Below, one piece after another: positions 2,625 through 20,060 of a stretch of 20,818 bases of DNA. The notes under the pieces are model-generated. The model searched no databases. It was not told the DNA's origin and saw only the letters and a list, made by a program, of their open reading frames with translations. Source of the DNA: Cyanophyceae cyanobacterium (lineage in GTDB: Bacteria > Cyanobacteriota > Cyanobacteriia > Cyanobacteriales > JBHJGN01); assembly GCA_050331735.1 (NCBI GenBank), contig JBHJGN010000062.1, forward strand, positions 1-20,818, in the 5' to 3' direction. Position numbers and translations under genes: made by a program. The first letter of the stretch is position 1, and each line of letters starts with the position of its first letter.

Positions 2625-3797
2625 ATGCAGAATAGTTTAAGTCAACCATTTCGACAGGCGCGGTGGGCGATTGGTTTAGCCATCGGTTCAATAGCCATCG
2701 CGGGAGCTGGCGTCATCTACTACACCCATTCTCCATCATCATCTGTCCCTGCCCTCCCAGCAGAAACTCAACCAGTTAAGGTTACTGCTTTGGGGCGACT
2801 GGAACCTCAAGGAGAGGTCGTGCAGGTATCTCACCCCTCCCATCCGAGCGGTGTTTATCGAGTCGAGCAATTACTGGTTGAAGTGGGCGATCACGTTGAA
2901 GCCGAGCAAACGATTGCTATTTTAGATAACCGCGAGCGCTTGGAAGGAGCCGTTCAGGAAGCTAAAGAGCAGGTTAAGATAGCTCAGGCAAATCTCAACC
3001 AAGTCCAAGCCGGAGCGCAGCAGGGAGAACTCGACGCTCAACGCGCAACCATCGCTCGTCTAGAAGCGCAGCTAGCGGGAGATATTAGAACTCAACGCAC
3101 AACGATTGCTCGCCTCGAAGCAGAGCGGCAAAATGCCGAAGTAGAGTACCAGCGCCATCTATTCCTCTACCAAGAGGGAGCCATTTCCGCCTCAGCGCTA
3201 GACAGTCGCTCCTTAACTTTTCAAACGGCTCAAGAGCAGGTGAATGAGGCAAGCGCGGCACTTGAGCGCACGAACCGCACTCTACAGCAGCAGATTCAAG
3301 TTGCTAAAGCAACCCTCGCTCGCATTGCGGAAGTCCGCCCAACGAATATTGCTGCTGCCAGAGCGGAAGTGGACCGGGAGATCGCCGCCGTTGCCAGAAG
3401 CCAAGCTGAATTGGATGCCGCATACATTCGCGCTCCTCAAGCGGGTCGGATTCTGCAAATTCATACCGATACGGGAGAAGCTGTCGGTAATCAGGGCGTT
3501 GTGGACTTAGGACAAACGGAACGGATGTACGCGGTGGCTGAAGTATACGAAGGCGATATCGGTAAAATTCGTATTGGTCAAGCTGCCACCATCATTGCCG
3601 ATACCCTTTCGGGCAACCTTCGCGGAACCGTCGAACAAATCGGCTGGACGATTGCCAAACAAGACGTGCTCAATACCGATCCAACCGCCGCCATCGATGC
3701 CAGAGTGGTTGAGGTCAAAATTGGCTTAGATGAAGCCGCCAGTCAGCGCGTAGCGCAATTAACGAACTTACAGGTAGACGTGGAGATCGAGCTATGA
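2625..3797 (+). CDS. devB: DevB/HlyD-family ABC exporter membrane fusion protein
   Basis: N-terminal TM helix, VTALGRLEPQGEV, long coiled coil, AEVYEGDI, DARVVEVKI...LTNLQV. Confidence 0.92.
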   Translation: MQNSLSQPFRQARWAIGLAIGSIAIAGAGVIYYTHSPSSSVPALPAETQPVKVTALGRLEPQGEVVQVSHPSHPSGVYRVEQLLVEVGDHVEAEQTIAILDNRERLEGAVQEAKEQVKIAQANLNQVQAGAQQGELDAQRATIARLEAQLAGDIRTQRTTIARLEAERQNAEVEYQRHLFLYQEGAISASALDSRSLTFQTAQEQVNEASAALERTNRTLQQQIQVAKATLARIAEVRPTNIAAARAEVDREIAAVARSQAELDAAYIRAPQAGRILQIHTDTGEAVGNQGVVDLGQTERMYAVAEVYEGDIGKIRIGQAATIIADTLSGNLRGTVEQIGWTIAKQDVLNTDPTAAIDARVVEVKIGLDEAASQRVAQLTNLQVDVEIEL

Positions 3798-4948
3798 AAC
3801 GTTGGATTCCTCTAGCTTGGCTTCAGCTCATTCGCCAAAAAGGACGATTTTTGGTAGCACTGTCTGGCATTGCGTTTGCTGATATTCTGATGTTGATGCA
3901 AATTGGGTTTGATTCTGCCCTCTACGAGAGCAATACGCGCCTGCATCAAAAACTTAACGCAGACATCGTTCTCATTAGTCCTCACGCTTGGTACTTAGCT
4001 AGAATGGCAACCTTTCCCCGTCGCCGCCTGTATCAGGCAGCAAGTTTGCCAGGGGTCGAAGCTACCGCTCCTCTATACGCTCAGATCGTCGAGTGGGAAA
4101 ACCCACAGACCAATCTCCTCACGGGTATCTTCCTCTTTGGCTTCGATCCAGAAAGACCCGCTTTTGACCTACCGGGAGTGAATCAAAACCTCGATCAGAT
4201 TCGGCGACCGGACACCTTGTTGTTCGATCGAGCATCGAGGGGAGAGTACCAGCAGGCGATCGCCCGTTTGGCTCAGGGCGAAACTGTAACAACCGAAGCG
4301 GGAGGGCGCACTATCCATCTCAGGGGACTCTACGAGGTAGGAGCTTCTTTTGCGGGGGATGGGAGTCTGATGACCAGCGACCAGAACTTTTTACGCCTTG
4401 TGCCTCAACGCAAAGCAGGGGAGGTCAGCGCTGGGCTCATTACTCTAACACCCGAAGCTGATTTAAATGCGGTGAAAGTAGCCTTAATGTCGCATCTGCC
4501 TGACGACGTTTTGGTGCTGAGCCGTCAAGAGTTTATTGACTTTGAGAAAAGTTACTGGAGAAAAAACACAGCCATTGGGTTTATCTTCGCCCTAGGAACC
4601 ATGATGGGATTTGTTGTCGGTGTCATCATTGTCTACCAAATTTTGTACAGCGATGTGGCTGAGCATACGGCAGAATATGCCACTCTTAAAGCAATGGGCT
4701 ATCGCAACCTTTATTTACTAAGTGTTGTTTTTCAAGAAGCCTTGATCTTAGCTGTCCTTGGTTACATTCCTGGAAACTTAATTACCATCGGGCTTTATGC
4801 TCTGACGCGCAATGCCACCAATTTGCCGATCTATATGACTCTATCGCGCACAGTTTACGTATTGTTGCTCACCATTATGATGTGCATTGCCTCTGGAGCC
4901 ATTGCGGTTCGTAAACTACGAGCAGCAGATCCGGCAGATATTTTCTAA
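3794..4948 (+). CDS. devC: DevC-family ABC transporter permease
   Basis: PLAWLQL, GIAFADILMLMQIGF, YQILYSDV..H..EYATLKAMGY, C-terminal ADPADIF. Confidence 0.94.
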   Translation: MKRWIPLAWLQLIRQKGRFLVALSGIAFADILMLMQIGFDSALYESNTRLHQKLNADIVLISPHAWYLARMATFPRRRLYQAASLPGVEATAPLYAQIVEWENPQTNLLTGIFLFGFDPERPAFDLPGVNQNLDQIRRPDTLLFDRASRGEYQQAIARLAQGETVTTEAGGRTIHLRGLYEVGASFAGDGSLMTSDQNFLRLVPQRKAGEVSAGLITLTPEADLNAVKVALMSHLPDDVLVLSRQEFIDFEKSYWRKNTAIGFIFALGTMMGFVVGVIIVYQILYSDVAEHTAEYATLKAMGYRNLYLLSVVFQEALILAVLGYIPGNLITIGLYALTRNATNLPIYMTLSRTVYVLLLTIMMCIASGAIAVRKLRAADPADIF

Positions 4949-4975
4949 GGGGCGATCGCTATTTCTACCTTAGCT

Positions 4976-5674
4976 ATGCAAACCCTATCCTCTACTCTTC
5001 CCGATCCGGCAACCTCTGTCATTGCTGTTACAGCCCTCAATTACTACTTTGGTCAAGGTCAGTTACGCAAGCAGGTTCTCTTCGATATCAATCTCACAAT
5101 CCACGCTGGTGAAATTGTGATTATGACCGGACCTTCAGGTTCAGGAAAGACAACCTTATTGAGTTTGATCGGGGGATTGCGCTCGGCTCAAGCAGGCAGC
5201 CTCAAAGTATTGCAGCAAGAGTTGTGTGGCGCAAGTCAGGAGCAATTCATTCAAGCTCGGCGCAACATTGGCTACATCTTTCAGGCACACAATCTTCTTA
5301 ATAGTCTCACGGCATTGCAAAACGTACAGATGTCGCTACAGCTCCATAATTGCTCTTGGCACGAGAAGCAAGCTAAAGCGGCTGAGATGCTCAAAGCGGT
5401 TGGGTTAGAAAACCGCCTTCATTACTATCCTGACAATCTTTCTGGGGGACAAAAGCAGCGGGTCGCCGTTGCCCGTGCTTTGGTCAGCCGTCCTCCCATC
5501 GTCTTAGCCGATGAACCAACGGCTGCCCTTGATAGTAAATCTGGTCGAGATGTCGTCGAGCTGATGCAAGAACTAGCGCAACAGGACTGCACGATTCTCA
5601 TGGTAACTCACGACAACCGCATTTTAGACATTGCTCATCGCATCGTTCGCATGGAGGATGGCGTTGTGCAATAG
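4976..5674 (+). CDS. devA: DevA-family ABC transporter ATP-binding protein
   Basis: Walker A GPSGSGKT, signature LSGGQKQR, Walker B VLADEPT, VTHDNRILD. Confidence 0.94.
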   Translation: MQTLSSTLPDPATSVIAVTALNYYFGQGQLRKQVLFDINLTIHAGEIVIMTGPSGSGKTTLLSLIGGLRSAQAGSLKVLQQELCGASQEQFIQARRNIGYIFQAHNLLNSLTALQNVQMSLQLHNCSWHEKQAKAAEMLKAVGLENRLHYYPDNLSGGQKQRVAVARALVSRPPIVLADEPTAALDSKSGRDVVELMQELAQQDCTILMVTHDNRILDIAHRIVRMEDGVVQ

Positions 5675-6586
5675 AGCTATTCCTTTTCTGTCAGATTCCG
5701 AGGAATCGAAGAACACAGATAAAAGAAAAATCCGCGATAAGGCAGGGAGAGCGATGGATGTAGAACTACAGATCCTCGCGCCAGTTGCCCGGAGACCCTC
5801 AGCCCACCGTAACGTTTATTGATGAGTATTGTAGCGGCTACAAAGACCTGTTTCCAGAAGTAAGAGGATACGAATGTTTTAAATACCTACATCTAGGAAT
5901 CATTTCCCCAATACCGAGAAAATCATTACCAGAAATAGCCAAAATAGTCGGCATCAATTCAGCCCAGTCACTACACCACTTTATTGCTCAATCGCCTTGG
6001 TCTGTAGCAGAGTTTAGACAAAGAAGATTAACCAAAACCCTCACCGCCTTAGCCGGACAGAAAATTACCATAGTGATTGATGAATGCTTATGGTGTTTAT
6101 GAGCAGGTCACATTTCCGCTGCTGTCTAAAGTGTTCAAACCCAAAGGCACACTAAAACCCGAAGACCAGTACAAAACCAAAATCGAATTAGCTTCACCAA
6201 TTATTGAAGAACTAGTTGAATTTGGCTTTGAAATCGAGCTAGTTCTGGCGGACAGTTTGAGGGCGTGAAAGTAGCGCCTTCATCCACACTTTAGAGCAAT
6301 ATAAGTTGCCTTGGGTCTTAGCAATTAGAAGTAATCATGGAGTGCTAATGCCCTGCGAGCAGAGGGTTAGAGCTAACAAATGGTGTAAGTTTGAGCGAGT
6401 GTTTAGCGACCACACTGCTGAAACTAGATATATCCGAGAAATTATTTTCGGCGAGAGAGATGCGAGAACCTATTGGGAAGTTACCACTGACCCGGAAACA
6501 ATGCCGGACAATTCTACTTCGTTCGTTATGACCAACCTTGCTGGTAAAAGTTCTTAGCTCAAGAAGGTTCTTGGCAATCTTTATGG

Positions 6587-6640
6587 TGCGGAATGCACTG
6601 CCGCTTGCGACCTGGAATCGAATTCCAAGTCGGTCGGCAG
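6587..6640 (+). repeat. 54-bp structured micro-insertion E4 (homolog of E1)
   Basis: TGCGGAATGCACTGCCGCTTGCGACCTGGAATCGAATTCCAAGTCGGTCGGCAG. Removal restores TAT GGG TTA AGA ACC TGG (YGLRTW). Confidence 0.85.
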
Positions 6641-6686
6641 GTTAAGAACCTGGGTTGAATATAGCTTCCGACAGTGTCAACAAGAG

Positions 6687-6739
6687 TCAGCCGGTGCACC
6701 GGAATGCGATTCCGGTGTACCGGCTGACCCTGATACGGG
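6687..6739 (+). repeat. 53-bp structured micro-insertion E5
   Basis: 20-bp stem GTCAGCCGGTGCACCGGAAT-GCG-ATTCCGGTGTACCGGCTGAC (one G-T pair) plus a short CCC..GGG hairpin. Removal restores GAG TTA GGT TGG (ELGW). Confidence 0.85.
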
Positions 6740-7147
6740 TTAGGTTGGACCGACTACCGCTTCACCAAATTTGAGCAAATCGAGAAGTGGTGGGAAATGA
6801 TTATGAGAGCTTATTTAATGATTAGTTTGAAACGAAAGCTTTCGGTCTTTTAAATCAAGCTCAGAGTACACCTAATGCTGAGCAAGGTCTGAGGGATTTT
6901 CCTCGTCATCAACACTGGAATCATCAACAGAGATGGAAAAACACCCTCAATAATCTTCGTTTGATTATTTAACCACTGATTTTGTTGTGGTTAATTTATC
7001 CCTGGTTAGCTGTTTTTCCCAATTCCACCTATTGCTTGGCTTTCGTGACTCTCATGGCCCTCATGAATCAATTTTACTCTTACTTTCCTGACGGGTAAAC
7101 TCGCTTGTTTATGACTTCTTCACCTCGGAATCTGACAGAAGAGGGAT

Positions 7148-7421
7148 AGCTCGAAAACCTGCTCTCACTGTTGGTATCAAGTGGACGAACTCTCTCTAGC
7201 CGTTAGAGAGTGGGTCCGAGTTGCGTTACCCGTCACGACAGGGAGGGAAATGCAGCGCTCAGCATTAGAGCAGAAGGCATCAGGATACTAAAGGCGGAGG
7301 GAACACCCGTCTCTGCTAGTGGAGGAAGTGTCAGACCAACTCGCGGTCGTAAGACTAAGACGAGGCAATTTCCGGCAAAGCTAGAAACCACGGCTTCAAA
7401 GAAGTAAGTCGTGGTAGTTAA
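7148..7421 (+). pseudogene. tnpB: IS200/IS605-family tnpB 3' remnant with right-end hairpin
   Basis: SSKTCSHCWYQVDELSLAVREWV / PSCVTRHDREGNAALSIRAEG (Zn finger and RuvC-III, frameshifted, DRD changed to DRE). Followed by hairpin ACCACGGCTT (7387-7396)/AAGTCGTGGT (7406-7415) and AGTTAA. Confidence 0.82.
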
Positions 7422-8605
7422 TTCGTGCAGGCTACGCGAAAGCCAACGTCGTTACTGCGACCGTCTGGCTGAAATGCATAGCGACACGCAGCGCGACAGA
7501 ATCGCGGCTGGTCATACCAAGAACCCCCGCGAATCACACGGGCCTGGTATCCATCAGAGATCCAAGCACTGCCATCCGTAGGGGCATTGAGATAATTATC
7601 GTGCCAGCGATCGCCGCACCACTCCCAGACGTTGCCGTGGAGGTCAGACAGGCCAAAATTGTTTAAGCTCTTAAAATAGCCAACTGGGGTCGTTTGCTGA
7701 CGATAGGGCCCAGGAGTCGAACCATAGGACGAGCAGCCATCGTAATTAGCTAGATCGGCGGCGATCGCCTCTCCAAAGTGAAAGGGTGTTGTCGTTGTTG
7801 CACGACAGGCGTACTCCCACTCTGCTTCGCTAGGGAGGCGATAAAGCCGTCCGGTTTTCTGGGCTAGTCGAGCACAGAACTCAACCGCGTCGTCCCACGA
7901 AACCCGTTCTACTGGAAGATTGTCTCCTTTAAAGCAGGCAGGCTCGGGATCGAGAGGGCGCTCCACCGTCGGAAGAGAGGCGATCGAGCGCCACTGAGCT
8001 TGCGTCACTGGATATTTTCCCATCGCAAAGGCCGCAATTGTCACAGAATGCTGCGGACCTTCATCAAGGCTGCGTTCTCCTTCTGTTGTCGGAGACCCCA
8101 TAACAAACGTTCCGCCTGGAAGACGCACCATTTCTAAACGGACGACGTGAGTACTGGGGGTAGCCCCAGGCGACGTCCTCTCCACCACGCCTAACTCTTC
8201 TGACCAGGTGAAAGGTCGTGACTGGCGCAGGTAGCATTGTGTCGATTTTGGCTTGCTGGTAGTCGGCTCTTTCCTCTGAAGGTGAACGGAGTCGAACGCT
8301 TGATGAAGCTTGGTACTGCCAAATTCAGTTGCCGTCACCTGAAAACAGTTTGGGGCAAAGAGAAATGTTTGTTCGCCTAGCCATTGAGACTGTCCGTTTA
8401 TTGCATCTATGCAATTGCTCATTATATCAACGACCTTCTGGGCTGCACTAAGCTCTAGGTTGTTGAGAACCAGAATAATCACTTTTCCCGAACGCAGAGC
8501 CTCTAAAACCGAGGCCATCTTCTCCAAAGAAAATAGCCTCATTACCTTAACTTCCGGAGGGTTTTCTTGATGCCGACCGAGTAAAGCAGACCAAATTGAA
8601 TTCAT
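7418..8605 (-). CDS. SepF-like N-terminal domain fused to FGE-sulfatase/SUMF1 (CLec-fold) domain
   Basis: aa 1-92 resemble SepF (EVKVMR..S..M..V..LRSGK.IIL.L....AQKVVD...AING....GEQTFLFAPNCFQV). aa about 157-395 contain PGGTFVMGS, YPVTQAQW, LPVERVSW, RLPSEAEWEYACRA, DLHGNVWEWC, RGGSW, GFRVAC. Confidence 0.88.
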   Translation of the reverse strand: MNSIWSALLGRHQENPPEVKVMRLFSLEKMASVLEALRSGKVIILVLNNLELSAAQKVVDIMSNCIDAINGQSQWLGEQTFLFAPNCFQVTATEFGSTKLHQAFDSVHLQRKEPTTSKPKSTQCYLRQSRPFTWSEELGVVERTSPGATPSTHVVRLEMVRLPGGTFVMGSPTTEGERSLDEGPQHSVTIAAFAMGKYPVTQAQWRSIASLPTVERPLDPEPACFKGDNLPVERVSWDDAVEFCARLAQKTGRLYRLPSEAEWEYACRATTTTPFHFGEAIAADLANYDGCSSYGSTPGPYRQQTTPVGYFKSLNNFGLSDLHGNVWEWCGDRWHDNYLNAPTDGSAWISDGYQARVIRGGSWYDQPRFCRAACRYAFQPDGRSNDVGFRVACTN

Positions 8606-10609
8606 TTTCCCCCTAGTGCTTTACCTATTCAAGCGATCCACCGTTCCATCAGATACATCTGGCTAGGAAAAGTGACGCTCCGTTTGGATGCGCTCCTACC
8701 CAAGCGGCTCCTGCACAGTTATCAAAACAGATTTTGAGAAAATTTAAACACAAACCGTGAAAATGCAGTTAATTACTTAGCAAAAATTTACCTTCCTCAG
8801 GACTTGATTGCTTAAAGAAGCCTACATGGTGCCTTCCCTGCCCTCGATGCGCTTCCCAAAACACCTGTTCCTAAAACCATTGTCAGTCTAGGAGGAATTG
8901 GTCAGCTTTCGTCAGTCGAAATCACCCGCAAGGACTTGAGGAGGAGCATCGCTAGATGCAGGTTCCGGCTGGTCACACGTCTGTGCTTTCATAGAAAATC
9001 AATCTACAGGATAGAAAAACTATCGCTCCAACCGTCTCCTCAATTTACCAGTTTCCGTTTAATAATACTTTCTTGCAAGACAATCTTCAGATTTGGCGGC
9101 AGTTGGCTTTGGTAGTAAGGGGGACTCTTTAACTTCCGACCTATCTCAACTTTGTCTCTGATTAAGATAAGTTAAAGCCTCTTAATGCAGAGAACTTACC
9201 TCGAAGATTTGAATCCTTGAGAGCTGAAAGCCGCAAGCCAATTAAAGTTTTATTAGGTAGGCAATATCAAACTATTAACTCAGCTCTACTAAGCTATTCT
9301 AGTTCTTGGAGTGATCCTGCTCTTCATCAAAGCTACCTTCTTCAGGGACTGATCGAGCAATCAAACTGAGTAATTTATCTGTTGAAGCACAGTAGTAAAC
9401 TTTAATCGGACTTAGCTTTCCCTTTTCAAGCCAATAAATTGTCAACATACTTACTTTTTCATAACTCTATTTATAGTCTGCCCACCTTTTCAGCATTTAT
9501 AACATTCGCTGCTAGAAATATATATTCAGGTATTAGGAATACTTTCGGCGCATTTACAGATGAGCTACGTTAACGCTCTCCTGTTTTTGTTTTGGCTAGC
9601 TACAGTAAATTACAGAACCCTGTATTACAATCAAATAATTTCATGGTTGTTTATACGGTTGACGACTCTTGTCATCTGTTCGATTAAAAATCAACGGATT
9701 TTCTGAAGTGCTTTTTTGTTATCTAAAATAGAGACGGTACGCCAATTCGGCAACAAAAATATTTAAAAAACAATTAAGAAAGGCCGAGGAGCTATCGATG
9801 AGCTGACCAGGCGAGCAATCTGTAGCTGATTCGAGACATTGATGTAGTGACAAAAAAATTTTTGATGATGGGTCATTGGATTAACGTCAAGCGACATAGA
9901 GCTTTTACAAATAAACGGCAAATCTATAGTTTAATGCGCTCCAATCAAGCCAACAACTTGAGCACTAGCTTAATTAGAACCTCCTGACAAACTTTTCACG
10001 TGTTCTTAATCTGTTTTCTCAATGTTCATCTGTTTTATACGGTCATAACTTAAGGGAGTCAAGTAGATGTAGAAACAAGTTTTTTTGAAGTCGCGTCAAG
10101 GTCATGTCTTTTGGCAAGATGTTCGTTGAATTGTTGTCTGGGATGCTAAACCTCAAAGAATTTGCTCTGGCTGCCGCAGCAACCAGAGCAAAGTACATAG
10201 ATTACTAAACCCAACACTATATAAGAAGCTTTACTCTTAGTTTTTGTTTCCCAATTCCCAAGAATTTTTGATATTGAAATTGTCATGTCTATGGTGATAT
10301 CTATGGCCGTAACGCTACAAGCACTGTATAGCAAGACTTGTAGCCACACAATTTAGTCTTGATTATGTCTTCTTGTCGGGAATTTTCCCCGTCATCAATG
10401 CCAACATCACGACTGAAAAAATGCAAAGCTCGCTTCAGGCTACTTCATTGACCTGTGAAAAATAATTAGACTGGGTAGGTTAGATTAGAAAACGATGCAG
10501 AGAAAAACCGGATTCGGGAGTAAGTTCCCGTCTGCTGTCCCAAACTCTGCCATAAATATTGACTTAGAGGCACAGCCGCCATTCGCTATTCAAAAAGAGC
10601 AAAGACGCT

Positions 10610-14477: not shown

Positions 14478-15938
14478 TTGAAGGAGTTTGACAAACCTAT
14501 TCCTAAAGAAAAACTTGACATTGTTGACAAAACGAGATCTAACCTATTCGCTTGGCGTGGTCAGTTTTCGCCGCAGCTTATTGAAGTTATATTGAACGCC
14601 TACTGTTTGCCTGATTCGATTATTCTCGACCCTTTCGCCGGTAGCGGGACTGTTTTGCTAGAGGCTGGAGTTCTCGAACTTGAAGCATATGGCTTCGAGA
14701 TCAATCCAGCAGCCTGGATTCTCAGTAAAACATATGAATTTATCAATGATGCAAGAAGAAAAGAGCATATAAATATTCTCAGAAAATTAGTAGACAAAGA
14801 ATTCCCTTTTAGAATCTTTGAGCATGATGATGAAGTAAAAAACTTATCAGGAATACTTAAAACTATTAGAGGAGAGTTGAAGCAAGAAAGCAAAAGAATA
14901 TTTGATGCGTTGGTAATTTTACTTGATGTGGCAAACAACAAGGTAACCAACAAATTTGTTCAATCAAAATTTGCAGCCTTGGCAAATTTGATCGAAAATC
15001 TTCCCTACTCTAACAAGGAAATAATTATGGGTTTGTCTGATGCTCGTTCTCTTCCGCTAGAAAGCGATTGTATAGATTTTGTGGCAACGTCTCCACCCTA
15101 CATAAATGTATTTAACTATCATCAGAATTATCGTAGATCTGCTGAAATACTGGGTTGGGATTTATTAAAAATAGCAAAATCAGAAATTGGCTCTAACAGA
15201 GCTAACCGTTTTTATACAGTAGTTCAATATTGTCTAGACATGGCAGATACTCTGAGAGAACTGTCTAGAGTGACTAAGGACGAAGCTCGAATTGTATTTG
15301 TTTTAGGACATGAATCTAATGTCCTCGGCGTTCCCTTTTATAATGCTGATATCATTGAAAAAATTGGAGTAAGGGCCAATCTTTTTTACAGAACTCTAAG
15401 GCAAAAGAGAGAATTCAAGAATAAGTTCGGAAAATTAATCAGGGAAGACATTATTAGCTTCTCAAATCTAAACAATAAAACTTGCAAAGAGACTGTTGAG
15501 CAAATTGCAAGGGATGTAGCGTTTGATGTATTAAAGAGTGGAATGTCTTCAGTTCCCTCAAAGAATCTTGCATCTTTGGAAGATGCAATTGATAAAGTTC
15601 AAGATATTGGAAGAACACCCACTTTAGATCAAAGACTTTACATCTATCAACCTTATCAAGATAGTACATCCTCATCAAGGAAAGTTCAATCTATGCCTGA
15701 ACTCTCTCGTCCTCATTACACTAAATTAACTGCTTGCCTCAACAATCGTCGCTTACCTGAAGCTGACAAGGAAAGTTTAGAAGAAGCCATTAGGAAATAT
15801 CATGAATGGATAACGGATATGGAGTCCATTGAGCGTGGTCAAGCTGACACTGTTGAGAAGTTGGTCGAAGCAACTAATCGATATAAGCGTTTCATCGAGC
15901 TTGATTTCATATTCGATAGCCCAGATAATTTCTTATAG
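14478..15938 (+). CDS. Amino-(N4-cytosine type) DNA methyltransferase running in frame into the first 81 aa of a Bpu10I-family endonuclease
   Basis: TTG start with AGGAAGG RBS. WRGQFSPQL, motif I DPFAGSGT, catalytic TSPPY. AT-rich, no HIP1 sites. Confidence 0.85.
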   Translation: MKEFDKPIPKEKLDIVDKTRSNLFAWRGQFSPQLIEVILNAYCLPDSIILDPFAGSGTVLLEAGVLELEAYGFEINPAAWILSKTYEFINDARRKEHINILRKLVDKEFPFRIFEHDDEVKNLSGILKTIRGELKQESKRIFDALVILLDVANNKVTNKFVQSKFAALANLIENLPYSNKEIIMGLSDARSLPLESDCIDFVATSPPYINVFNYHQNYRRSAEILGWDLLKIAKSEIGSNRANRFYTVVQYCLDMADTLRELSRVTKDEARIVFVLGHESNVLGVPFYNADIIEKIGVRANLFYRTLRQKREFKNKFGKLIREDIISFSNLNNKTCKETVEQIARDVAFDVLKSGMSSVPSKNLASLEDAIDKVQDIGRTPTLDQRLYIYQPYQDSTSSSRKVQSMPELSRPHYTKLTACLNNRRLPEADKESLEEAIRKYHEWITDMESIERGQADTVEKLVEATNRYKRFIELDFIFDSPDNFL

Positions 15939-16604
15939 AGACAAAAAGGACAGCTAAAGTTAGATAACACCATTTTAGAAGAGTTTTTGCCACAGGTTGT
16001 TTTCCGTAGTTTACGAGGGATCGATGATTCTTTTGAATTGGGGCCACGAAATACATTTGCTGGGTTAAGTTTTTTGTCATCCCTCGGAAATCCTGGGCAG
16101 GGTGGAGAACCAAGTATTAGAAGTAAAGATCAAGTCTTTATACTTGGCAAGAAATTATACTTAAAGTCATCATTTAATCCGGAATTTCAAGATTATAAGT
16201 TACTTGAGTCGCATCTTGGCTATGTTTGTGCAGAATGCAAGACTAACTTAGATAAAACTATGTTTCAAGAAGCTGTAGCGACGAGTCGAGATTTAAAGAT
16301 TGCTGTGCCAGGATCTTTGTATTTTTTAGTTTGCGAGTTTCTTGATATGACACCAGTTTCAATTATCTCAACTCAGATTGACGATGTTTTAATTGTGCGA
16401 AAAACGAAACGGATGTCGTCCAACATCCGCCAAGAATATCGAACGCCTGAAGAAAGACAAAAACATAGACAAGGGTATATAGATTTTTTGGATTCTTCTA
16501 GGTATTATCCTGATGTATTTCAAAGAATGATCAACAAGATCCAATCTCTGATAGACGATACAAGCCCATCGATGGAGAATGTCTTGAATCAAGGACATTT
16601 TTAA
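15693..16604 (+). pseudogene. Bpu10I-family restriction endonuclease interrupted by a single in-frame TAG (15936-15938)
   Basis: MPELSRPHYTKL...DNFL*RQKGQLKLDNTILEEFLP...KDQVFIL...AECKTNLDKTMFQEA all in one frame. The family motif as I recall it is FLYRQKGQLKLDN, implying Tyr to amber. Confidence 0.85.
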
Positions 16605-18312: not shown

Positions 18313-19392
18313 ATGATTGATGCCATCATAATTATTCTATGCGTTTTGGCGGCAGCCGGAATCGGCTTCGACGGCGTCCAGCTACTGCCTAGTACCGTTA
18401 GAGAGCAAGTGTCAGATTTCGAGGCTTTACGCCTCGTCTCTGCTGGTTTTGGTGCTCTCATTGGTTTTGCCATTGGCTTGAGCGTACAAACCACCTACCG
18501 ACGATTAGAATCTCAGGTCCGCAACACCTCGATTGAAACAATTCTGACAAGAGCCATTGGGTTAGTAGTCGGTTTGTTACTCGCAAATTTGATGTTAGCT
18601 CCCATTTTCCTGCTGCCCATTCCTGGAGAGTTTGCCTTCATTAAGCCGATGATGGCAATTTTAGGCAGCGTTATGTTTGCCTTTTTAGGTGTTAGCTTGG
18701 CAGATACTCACGGTCGCACTTTCCTTCGTCTCATCAACCCTAACAGCATCGAAACGATGCTGATAGCAGAAGGAGCCATCGAGCCAGCATCGACAAAAAT
18801 TTTAGATACGAGCTGCATTATCGATGGTCGTATTGAGGAACTATTGACTACGGGGTTTTTGGAAGGACAAATTTTGATTCCTCAGTTTGTTTTACAAGAG
18901 CTACAGCTACTGGCGGATGCTAACAACGATCAAAAGCGTATGCGGGGACGCAGAGGGCTAGACATTTTGAACCGCATGCAGGAAGCATATCCAGATAGAA
19001 TTATTATTCACCCAGCAGACTACGAAGACATTTCCACGGTTGATGCTAAGCTAGTGCGCTTAGCTCAAGAAATTAACGCGCTGCTACTCACCAATGATTT
19101 TAACCTCAGCAAAGTCGCTAACTTGCAGAAGGTGACGATCCTCAGCATTAATGACTTAGCGCAGGCTGTGCGTCCAATCTATTTGCCGGGCGATCGCCTA
19201 GACCTCAAAATTCTCAAAGAAGGAAAAGAACCAGCGCAAGGAATTGGCTATCTTGAAGACGGCACGATGGTTGTGGTAGAAGAAGGCAGCAATTACGTTG
19301 GTGAGGAAGTTCAGGTTGTTGTAACCTCAGCTCTGCAAACGGTAGCGGGACGCATGATTTTTGCTAAGCCTCAAGCAGTGATGGCATCTTGA
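18313..19392 (+). CDS. PIN/TRAM domain membrane protein (YacL-like)
   Basis: N-terminal TM helices. PIN: ILDTSCIIDGRI, RGRRGLDIL, LTNDFNL. TRAM: GKEPAQGIGYLEDGTMVVVE, LQTVAGRMIFA. Confidence 0.93.
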   Translation: MIDAIIIILCVLAAAGIGFDGVQLLPSTVREQVSDFEALRLVSAGFGALIGFAIGLSVQTTYRRLESQVRNTSIETILTRAIGLVVGLLLANLMLAPIFLLPIPGEFAFIKPMMAILGSVMFAFLGVSLADTHGRTFLRLINPNSIETMLIAEGAIEPASTKILDTSCIIDGRIEELLTTGFLEGQILIPQFVLQELQLLADANNDQKRMRGRRGLDILNRMQEAYPDRIIIHPADYEDISTVDAKLVRLAQEINALLLTNDFNLSKVANLQKVTILSINDLAQAVRPIYLPGDRLDLKILKEGKEPAQGIGYLEDGTMVVVEEGSNYVGEEVQVVVTSALQTVAGRMIFAKPQAVMAS

Positions 19393-19604
19393 TAGATAAC
19401 CCTCGAATTCGCGTTGGGTCAGCACATCGAGGAAGCATCAACGGAGCTTCTCGTGCTGACCTCCGATATTACCGTCCGCCTTTGAAACCCTCTTTAGCAG
19501 GGTTATTCGATCTGTCTTTAAGCAGGTGTAATCTGCTTCAGTCATCGCTTGAATAAACGAGGAATGGCGCCTAAACGCCATTTTACAAGTATTAAGGAAA
19601 GCGA

Positions 19605-20060
19605 ATGACTTTTACCACTAACGAAACAACCCAAAAAGCCGTTGAGATGTTCAGCGGCTTTGACACAGACACAAAGCTAGCTTTGCTGTGGTATGGATAT
19701 TTAGATCTTAAAGAGCAGTTGTCTCCTGCTGATGCTGAGTCGGCTGAAGTGACAGCGAACGCCGTATTTGACAACATTAAGGCTATGTCCAAAGAGGAGC
19801 AATTACAGGCTCAACGCGATATTGTGAATCGAGCCAATACCGACATTAGTCGTGCCTATGGTTCCCTAAGTTCTAGTGCCCAAATAGATATGTGGCTGAA
19901 ATTGGCCCAAGCGATGGAAGCAGAAAGCGTTATCAACGTCCCTGACGATTACGAACTTCCTGACAACACCAACGACTTCGTTGCCATGATGAAAGAGCTG
20001 GAATTTGAGGAGCGCATTAACTTCACCCGCAGCGTTGTTGTTAATATGGGAGCTAAATAA
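19605..20060 (+). CDS. Helical carotenoid protein / orange carotenoid protein N-terminal domain
   Basis: DTKLALLWYGY, MSKEEQLQAQRD, ISRAYGSLS...W.KLAQAM, VPDDYEL, ERINFTRSVVVNMG. Confidence 0.88.
   Translation: MTFTTNETTQKAVEMFSGFDTDTKLALLWYGYLDLKEQLSPADAESAEVTANAVFDNIKAMSKEEQLQAQRDIVNRANTDISRAYGSLSSSAQIDMWLKLAQAMEAESVINVPDDYELPDNTNDFVAMMKELEFEERINFTRSVVVNMGAK

Follow-up and report, generated by a model that had tools for sequence, protein, structure and literature searches.

A gene of a cyanobacterium (Cyanophyceae; assembly GCA_050331735.1) was found to join a SepF-type domain to an FGE-sulfatase/C-type-lectin-fold domain. It lies on contig JBHJGN010000062.1 (C62), one of the 99 contigs of a 5.57 Mb genome. 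Positions 1–20,818 of the contig were analysed and are called the window below. The protein is both a diverged SepF paralog and a multidomain protein whose FGS head has a new N-terminal partner. Our leading reading, which we hold tentatively, is that of a sensor-plus-output protein: the SepF-derived module would self-associate and/or dock on a divisome peptide with altered specificity, and would not act as a second Z-ring anchor.

The open reading frame (ORF) spans 7418..8605 on the minus strand and encodes 395 aa, starting with MNSIWSALLGR; residues 1–92 correspond exactly to 8330–8605. An in-frame stop lies only five codons before the ATG. Among the 19-residue windows of the protein, none had the character of a transmembrane span (maximum Kyte-Doolittle value 1.31). 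The gene product is a soluble cytoplasmic two-module protein without a signal peptide or membrane span. The features of the gene are as follows.

7418..8605, minus strand: whole coding sequence, with SepF-like domain, linker and FGE/CLec-fold domain (ORF list, Pfam, AlphaFold2); the stop codon is at 7418–7420
8573..8605, minus strand: N-terminal peptide MNSIWSALLGR, aa 1–11, SepF-leader-like (sequence pattern)
8330..8551, minus strand: SepF-fold core, aa 19–92 (Pfam, secondary structure of the model, Foldseek)
8414..8416, minus strand: codon of N64, at the position of G109 of Bacillus subtilis SepF, helix 2 (alignment)
8381..8383, minus strand: codon of W75, at the position of K125 of Corynebacterium glutamicum SepF, an FtsZ-tail contact (ungapped alignment to 6sat)
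8363..8365, minus strand: codon of F81, at the position of F131 of C. glutamicum SepF, an FtsZ-tail contact; conserved (alignment)
8135..8329, minus strand: Ser/Thr/Pro-rich linker, aa 93–157 (predicted local distance difference test score, pLDDT, and composition)
7430..8134, minus strand: FGE-sulfatase/C-type-lectin-fold domain, aa 158–392, predicted to be non-catalytic by the FGE criterion (Pfam, Foldseek)
8608..8614, minus strand: putative Shine-Dalgarno sequence AGGGGGA, purine-rich, 3–9 nt 5' of the ATG (read from the sequence)

The SepF-like domain

The Pfam SepF model (PF04472) matched aa 19–90 over its whole length (positions 1–72 of 72) with an E-value of 2.3e-14 and 53.8 bits, at a cut-off of 27. 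In a six-frame search of the genome, the domain scored 57.7 bits. The AlphaFold2 model of aa 1–100 had a mean pLDDT of 83.7, with values >90 for aa 20–90, and aa 19–92 were modelled as strand-helix-strand-helix followed by three strands. When this model was compared with the PDB by Foldseek, all matches down to rank 22 were SepF proteins, archaeal SepFs included. The template modelling (TM) score was 0.92 for B. subtilis SepF (3zih; root-mean-square deviation 1.1 over 78 columns) and 0.82–0.93 for the C. glutamicum SepF-FtsZ-tail complexes 6sat and 6scs (6sat: 0.82). By its predicted structure, the segment aa 19–92 is a SepF-fold domain. A reading made earlier from the sequence alone (the sequence-only reading) had described a SepF-like core here, and both the hidden Markov model and the structural search returned SepF for it.

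The full-length model had a mean pLDDT of 82.5 (alignment of 66 rows). In this model, aa 94–128 of the linker were disordered, with a pLDDT <50 at aa 94–105 and 114–128. The end of the linker (aa 133–157) was modelled as a beta-hairpin (aa 133–162) running into the FGE fold.

The C-terminal domain

The FGE-sulfatase/lectin-fold domain that the sequence-only reading had placed after the linker as a binding module was recovered by Pfam (PF03781) on aa 158–392 with an E-value of 6.5e-57. The best Foldseek match was PvdO (5hha; 39% identity, E 3.8e-42), followed by FGEs and by TvpA (2y3c), a variable protein of a Treponema diversity-generating retroelement (DGR). The identity of the FGE part to FGEs (1Y1E, 2Q17) was 26–28%. 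NCBIfam gave only sub-threshold matches to the FGE superfamily, the best being the PvdO model with 169.8 bits vs a cut-off of 500.

In the alignment to 2aft (a C336S mutant), C336 of human FGE corresponds to D365 and C341 to C370. The residue D365 was nearly invariant across the fusion family. Because the equivalent of C336 is an Asp, the copper-binding Cys pair of FGEs is absent, and by this residue pattern the C-terminal domain is not an FGE enzyme.

With 60–66% identity, the FGE part was closest to stand-alone FGE proteins and to the domains at the C-terminal ends of caspase-FGE and PF26355-FGE proteins; for kinase-FGE proteins, the identity was 55–63%. The genome contained 10 further matches to the FGE part. 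Such domains have been described as CLec modules that bind ligands in cyanobacterial signalling proteins, kinases among them, and that are often diversified by DGRs; most multidomain proteins with a CLec domain were predicted to be cytosolic, and the DGR variation is written into their C-terminal region (PMC7517822). FGS domains have been proposed as intracellular invader- or ligand-sensing modules (PMC8195603) and appear as sensors of STAND NTPases (PMC13581612). SepF is not mentioned in PMC7517822 or PMC8195603. The protein shares with FGS/CLec-headed proteins the placement of a C-terminal FGS domain behind a different N-terminal module. This module is SepF-like here and is not one of the known effector or effector-associated modules.

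We also checked the domain as a DGR target. The genome had a single RVT_1 match, in a 553-aa frame on contig C26. No copy of nt 7418–7720 in the genome was longer than 62 bp, and none had more than 77% identity at that length. The stretch usually varied by DGRs (RGGSWYD.PRFCR..CRY....N.GFR) was conserved across the 12 full-length members of the fusion family. The DGR-target hypothesis was rejected on these two grounds, the missing template-like copy of the 3' end and the conserved C-terminal stretch, and the variable binding module of the sequence-only reading is not supported. Going by this conservation, the lectin-fold head is more likely to bind a fixed ligand than variable ones.

The fusion family

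An exhaustive HMMER search with aa 1–130 against 1.84 billion cluster representatives returned 169 matches (E up to 1e-3). The best of these were short SepF-like proteins of 94–137 aa with 38–46% identity; P0006, P0051 and P0128 shared the order of SepF followed by FGE. A profile search of a 5.8-billion-protein collection found at least 13 clusters with both modules among its best 120 rows, this protein included. PF04472 and PF03781 were annotated in 11 of the 13, and P0006 and P0161 were judged to be full-length by coverage. The architecture thus occurs in at least 12 other clusters and is not a one-off.

The 13 fusions align end to end with 49–58% identity and form two groups. Group A (this protein, P0006, P0161, P0160 and P0170) has linkers of ~65–140 residues, and group B has linkers of ~30–45 residues. 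The Pfam SepF scores of the other group A members were marginal (P0160: 27.5 bits, P0170: 29.8, P0161: 18.3), and P0006 had no Pfam SepF match at E up to 1e-3. HEAT-like repeats, considered for the long linkers of P0006, P0160 and P0161, were dropped after Pfam found none there with E-values up to 0.01.

The 13 fusion domains came out as one clade when 161 SepF domains were placed in a tree, with a value of 95 in the Shimodaira-Hasegawa-like approximate likelihood-ratio test (SH-aLRT); the tree has only 74 columns and does not order the deeper branches. The nearest non-fusion row was the short paralog P0002. The sequence data are compatible with a single origin of the family.

The ratio of non-synonymous to synonymous substitution rates (dN/dS, Nei-Gojobori) between the fusions of G227 and G024, two other genomes of the phylum, was 0.17 for the FGE part and 0.23 for the SepF-like part, the latter at a dS of 1.49 and hence near saturation. 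When 401 genomes sampled across the phylum were searched with the full-length profile and four candidates per genome were scored, a candidate of G384 (model span 16–365) was considered as a fourth fusion and rejected as a kinase-FGE protein.

Three further searches added no member. A word search with aa 1–130 among proteins of 217–692 aa returned only the fusion protein itself. The N-terminal alignment of 12 fusions gave 67 pattern matches in species-representative genomes, none of which was confirmed at the threshold. A scan of species-representative genomes with P0006 kept 80 matches, all to the linker and FGE part (none before query residue 81).

Two family members carry NCBI names: P0171 is a 'cell division protein SepF [Gloeocapsa sp. 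PCC 73106]' and P0176 a 'DUF552 domain-containing protein [Gloeocapsa sp. DLM2.Bin57]'. These names are automatic annotations and not tested functions. The SepF-FGE architecture is thus already present and automatically annotated in public databases. A full-text search of the literature, which did not extend to the supplementary tables of the cited papers, found no description of the fusion among the papers listed, and this agrees with the earlier view of an uncharacterised architecture.

Departure from the canonical SepF pattern

Residues were counted by column in the 161 SepF domains, which included 74 classed as canonical-like, 63 short paralogs and the 13 fusions. In an ungapped HMMER alignment, D60-I61-M62-S63-N64 falls on D-F-L-S-G of B. 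subtilis SepF; DIMSN does stand at the position of the usual DFxxG, as had been noticed from the sequence. The last residue of this motif, G109, is reported to be crucial for the polymerisation of SepF dimers (PMC10907229). The entry 3zii is a G109K mutant, and its Lys was aligned with N64. The column held Gly in 74/74 canonical-like domains, 62/63 short paralogs and 8/13 fusions. All five fusions of group A have lost the Gly, and the residue here is Asn.

In C. glutamicum SepF, the pocket for the FtsZ tail is formed across the helix-helix dimer; F131A strongly reduces FtsZ-tail binding, and K125E/F131A eliminates it (PMC7118173). The ungapped alignment to 6sat placed F81 at F131 and W75 at K125. 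The K125 column was Arg or Lys in 57 of the 74 canonical-like domains and Trp in none of them, while Trp was found in 23/63 short paralogs and 12/13 fusions. The F131 column was Phe in 12/13 fusions, and the P85 column was Pro in 74/74 canonical-like domains, 63/63 short paralogs and 7/13 fusions. By these columns, the fusion family retains the fold and the Phe; one proven FtsZ contact is altered, and several otherwise invariant positions are relaxed. The SepF-like module, judged by alignment, no longer follows the canonical pattern. The change from Lys/Arg to Trp marks a whole SepF-like subfamily (short paralogs and fusions), the peptide partner of which may not be FtsZ.

The N-terminal peptide

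The pattern M-x-[SN]-[IL]-[FW]-x-x-L is common to MNSIWSALLGR and canonical cyanobacterial SepF N-termini, e.g. MSNLFNKLRDFVGF. The leader of the genome's own canonical SepF (MKTILTKLKDFVGL) also fits it, and the group A fusions share it. A helix at aa 2–9 was seen with low pLDDT in the full-length model and was absent from the model of aa 1–100. For the first 11 residues, the hydrophobic moment was 0.24, a value reached by 7270 of 10,000 shuffles; the median of the canonical-like proteins was 0.47 (n=74). The peptide has no Lys and one Arg. The gap between peptide and core is ~7 residues, and the core of the genome's canonical SepF begins ~80 residues in.

Because the moment is low, basic residues are few and the gap to the core is short, the resemblance to an amphipathic membrane helix is weak. 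From the sequence-only reading, which had likened MNSIWSALLGR to the amphipathic SepF helix, the leader pattern stands but the amphipathicity does not, as the moment was no better than that of shuffles. The canonical combination of an amphipathic membrane helix and a long disordered linker was not found in the fusion, and the likeness is one of pattern. This likeness suggests that the peptide is a relic of a SepF leader. In group B, the N-terminal peptide contains a Pro-Pro (e.g. P0171).

SepF paralogs and other SepF architectures

Three SepF domains were found in the genome: a canonical protein of 188 aa (100 bits, contig C12), a stand-alone protein of 95 aa (62.8 bits, contig C64) and the fusion. 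This is in line with the earlier proposal of a divergent SepF paralog. The core of the fusion was 36% identical to the canonical SepF and 35% to the short paralog of the same genome. More than one SepF domain was found in only five of 151 genomes of the order (G000, G227, G024, G101 and G445; E up to 1e-6), and three of these five carry the fusion.

On C12, the canonical sepF lies beside a 266-aa ORF, which we take by eye to be pyrroline-5-carboxylate-reductase-like, and has a 222-aa ORF on its other flank. A yggS/pipY-sepF-proC gene order is a known context of canonical sepF. The fusion gene does not share the proC-adjacent context of the canonical copy and is located between a decayed insertion sequence (IS) and a 2-kb ORF-poor stretch.

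The 95-aa paralog (L002:1480–1767, minus strand, on C64) has Trp at the K125 position. It lies directly 3' of a gene for an acidic 147-aa DUF6335 protein (L002:1908–2351, minus strand, E 1.6e-36). G227 also had three SepF-domain matches; in addition to a canonical SepF and the fusion, it has a very diverged 78-aa ORF (L128:1483–1719, minus strand, 37.8 bits) without Trp at the K125 position.

SepF domains were also found behind other modules. In each of two proteins, a pair of SepF domains comes after an enzyme: a Ser/Thr kinase in P0097 (448 aa) and a caspase (Peptidase_C14) in P0031 (551 aa). A word search with the SepF pair of P0097 returned only P0097 itself.

Favoured reading and alternatives

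In the sensor-plus-output reading, the lectin-fold head would bind one fixed ligand and the SepF-derived module would be in the output position. This module would self-associate near the membrane, forming a dimer of the SepF type or a short polymer; as an alternative or added output, it would dock on a peptide of the division machinery. Ligand binding would be coupled to the assembly state or the location of the protein. A role as a second Z-ring anchor is unlikely because the family has swapped the basic FtsZ-tail contact for Trp and because this copy has lost the helix glycine. Any divisome contact is more likely to be that of a modulator with altered peptide specificity, as the residue changes would have it.

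Several points weigh against this reading. Because F81 is kept and the SepF fold is intact, canonical FtsZ-tail binding could still take place. Self-association and the binding of membrane, FtsZ/SepF and ligand are all steps that we infer and that the protein may perform. The fusion of G024 has no N-terminal peptide. The architecture is rare: with four candidates scored per genome, three of the 401 sampled genomes (G000, G227 and G024) carried it. Most pairs of fusion genes are synonymously saturated, including this gene vs those of G227 and G024, and the only usable pair is near saturation. The neighbours are unrelated across the three loci for which DNA was available, and no gene context is conserved. 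The view of SepF as a recurrent module rests on few cases because P0097 and P0031 are single cluster representatives.

The alternative that comes next is a septal role, which we regard as possible but doubtful. Here, the SepF-like domain would bind the FtsZ tail (and the membrane via the peptide) or join the host SepF, so that the lectin head is brought to the septum or SepF polymers are capped. The full SepF fold with a low root-mean-square deviation to the SepF-FtsZ-tail complex 6sat speaks for it, as do the leader pattern of the peptide and the typical tail end of the host FtsZ (...LDIPEFLRRRRFSKGL). The conserved F81 stands at the position of F131, where the single change F131A strongly weakens binding (PMC7118173). 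A 'capper' would require one inactive interface, which the missing helix glycine would supply, and mutant SepF co-assembled with the endogenous SepF in C. glutamicum (PMC7118173). However, 12 of the 13 fusions carry Trp in place of K125, and in C. glutamicum the pocket for FtsZ spans the helix-helix dimer (PMC7118173), which is the interface of the lost glycine (PMC10907229). Moreover, the peptide is not measurably amphipathic and has a single basic residue, Arg; it contains Pro-Pro in group B and is absent from one member.

We consider it unlikely that the protein is a conflict or stress sensor without a tie to division, in which the SepF-like domain would be only an oligomerisation or membrane-remodelling effector. 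FGS sensors occur in counter-invader systems, mostly of multicellular bacteria including cyanobacteria (PMC8195603, PMC13581612), and SepF proteins are able to remodel lipid vesicles (PMC8178401). The same FGE clade is joined to caspases and kinases, the distribution of the fusion is sporadic, and the gene adjoins a decayed IS. Nevertheless, no defence genes were seen flanking the fusion at the three loci (no dedicated defence-system scan was made), and the Bpu10I-type restriction-modification pair of the window is 6 kb distant. The sensing surface is conserved and not diversified, the NTPase switch and an effector-associated domain are absent, and PMC8195603 does not name SepF.

A ligand-gated division brake is a bolder idea, to which we give a rather low probability. 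The head would sense an intracellular molecule, the Trp-type SepF module would engage the divisome and division would pause. The signal could be, for example, a phage product, a stress metabolite or an intermediate of the cell wall or of glycans. The brake might act as a chain terminator co-assembled with the host SepF, or it might occupy the tail of FtsZ with a changed specificity. If this were true, and taking the kinase-2xSepF and caspase-2xSepF proteins into account, SepF folds would serve the cyanobacterial divisome in general as an address tag or output.

A tethered enzyme, with a catalytic C-terminal domain (a PvdO-like/FGE-superfamily oxidoreductase) that the SepF-like part only positions or dimerises, is very unlikely. 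PvdO was the best match in structure, sequence (39%) and NCBIfam (169.8 bits), and C370 and often C374 are conserved. On the other hand, the PvdO score is far under the cut-off of 500, one FGE catalytic Cys is an Asp, C374 is absent in two of the 12 full-length family members, and the domain belongs to a clade that provides binding heads without enzymatic activity.

A decaying or neutral fusion without function, for which the rarity, the adjoining decayed IS and 2-kb AT-rich stretch without long ORFs and the relaxed SepF positions could be cited, is scarcely credible given frames that are intact in 13 of 13 clusters at ~50% identity, a dN/dS of ~0.2 in both modules of the one measurable pair and a fold predicted with confidence.

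Surroundings of the gene

The tRNA and Rfam scans of the window gave no matches. A search of sequencing runs listed no RNA run with the sequence; the only complete match was a DNA run, which may be the source of the assembly. An IS-like element of 1479 bp (5674–7152), with 30-nt inverted repeats at its ends that are 93% complementary, separates the 3' end of the fusion gene from an ABC-transporter gene. Its only content is a 105-aa fragment of a DDE_5 transposase (5785–6102). The element is old and decayed, because its partial copies on other contigs of the genome have diverged (76–82% identity). On the 5' side of the fusion gene, a stretch of 2 kb (8606–10609) has no ORF >67 aa, which is unusually long for a bacterial intergenic region. 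Its GC content was 35–46% vs 47–57% for the genes on either side; the genome has no second copy of it, and it had no Rfam or tRNA match.

Further genes of the window include a three-gene exporter operon (2625–5674) with an HlyD-like membrane-fusion protein, an FtsX-like permease and an ABC ATPase, which resembles the DevBCA-type ABC exporters. A restriction-modification pair was located at 14478–16604; it consists of a 486-aa ORF with an N6_N4 DNA-methylase match and a 205-aa restriction endonuclease of the Bpu10I family (E 5.1e-97). Two proteins are encoded at 18313–20060: a PIN-TRAM protein of 359 aa and, with 151 aa, a stand-alone homologue of the orange carotenoid protein N-terminal domain, which is of the helical carotenoid protein type (Carot_N, E 8.5e-41).

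Significance and comparison with known systems

Cyanobacteria lack FtsA, and SepF is described as an essential early component of their divisome (PMC8178401). A SepF-derived domain wired to a sensing head, as in the sensor-plus-output reading, would be a compact means of linking a chemical signal with division or with a membrane-proximal assembly. The finding widens the range of modules joined to the abundant cyanobacterial FGS/CLec heads beyond kinases, caspases and NTPases. For annotation, it means that family entries named 'cell division protein SepF' should not be counted as proof of a second Z-ring anchor.

The known proteins P0171 and P0176 have the same two modules and belong to the same clade. 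They differ from the protein of the window as group B members with a short linker, the helix Gly kept (DWLNG) and ~50% identity, and P0171 has the Pro-Pro leader.

With canonical SepF (3ZIH/3ZII, 6SAT and the 188-aa copy of the genome), the fusion shares the full Pfam domain, the fold, the Phe at the F131 position and the leader pattern. In contrast to canonical SepF, it has no long linker between leader and core, and its leader is not amphipathic by hydrophobic moment. It has Trp at the K125 position, Asn for the helix Gly and a 300-aa C-terminal extension with a lectin-fold domain, and its gene is not beside a proC-like gene.

The short cyanobacterial SepF-like paralogs (~80–140 aa; P0002, P0003 and the C64 copy) are the best matches of the SepF-like part with 38–46% identity, and both the Trp aligned with K125 and the W[IL]GE..FLF motif recur in 23 of 63. 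However, they are stand-alone proteins without a lectin-fold domain and have kept the helix Gly and P85.

The fold of the C-terminal domain is the FGE-sulfatase fold of PvdO (5HHA) and the copper FGEs (1Y1E, 2Q17). Unlike these, the fusion has no Cys pair for copper, is far below the PvdO cut-off and has a cytoplasmic context. The kinase-CLec, caspase-FGE and STAND-FGS proteins have a C-terminal domain that is 55–66% identical and stands in the same place behind a variable module and a linker. In the fusion, by contrast, the N-terminal module is a SepF fold and not an enzyme or NTPase, there is no DGR, and the usual variable region is conserved.

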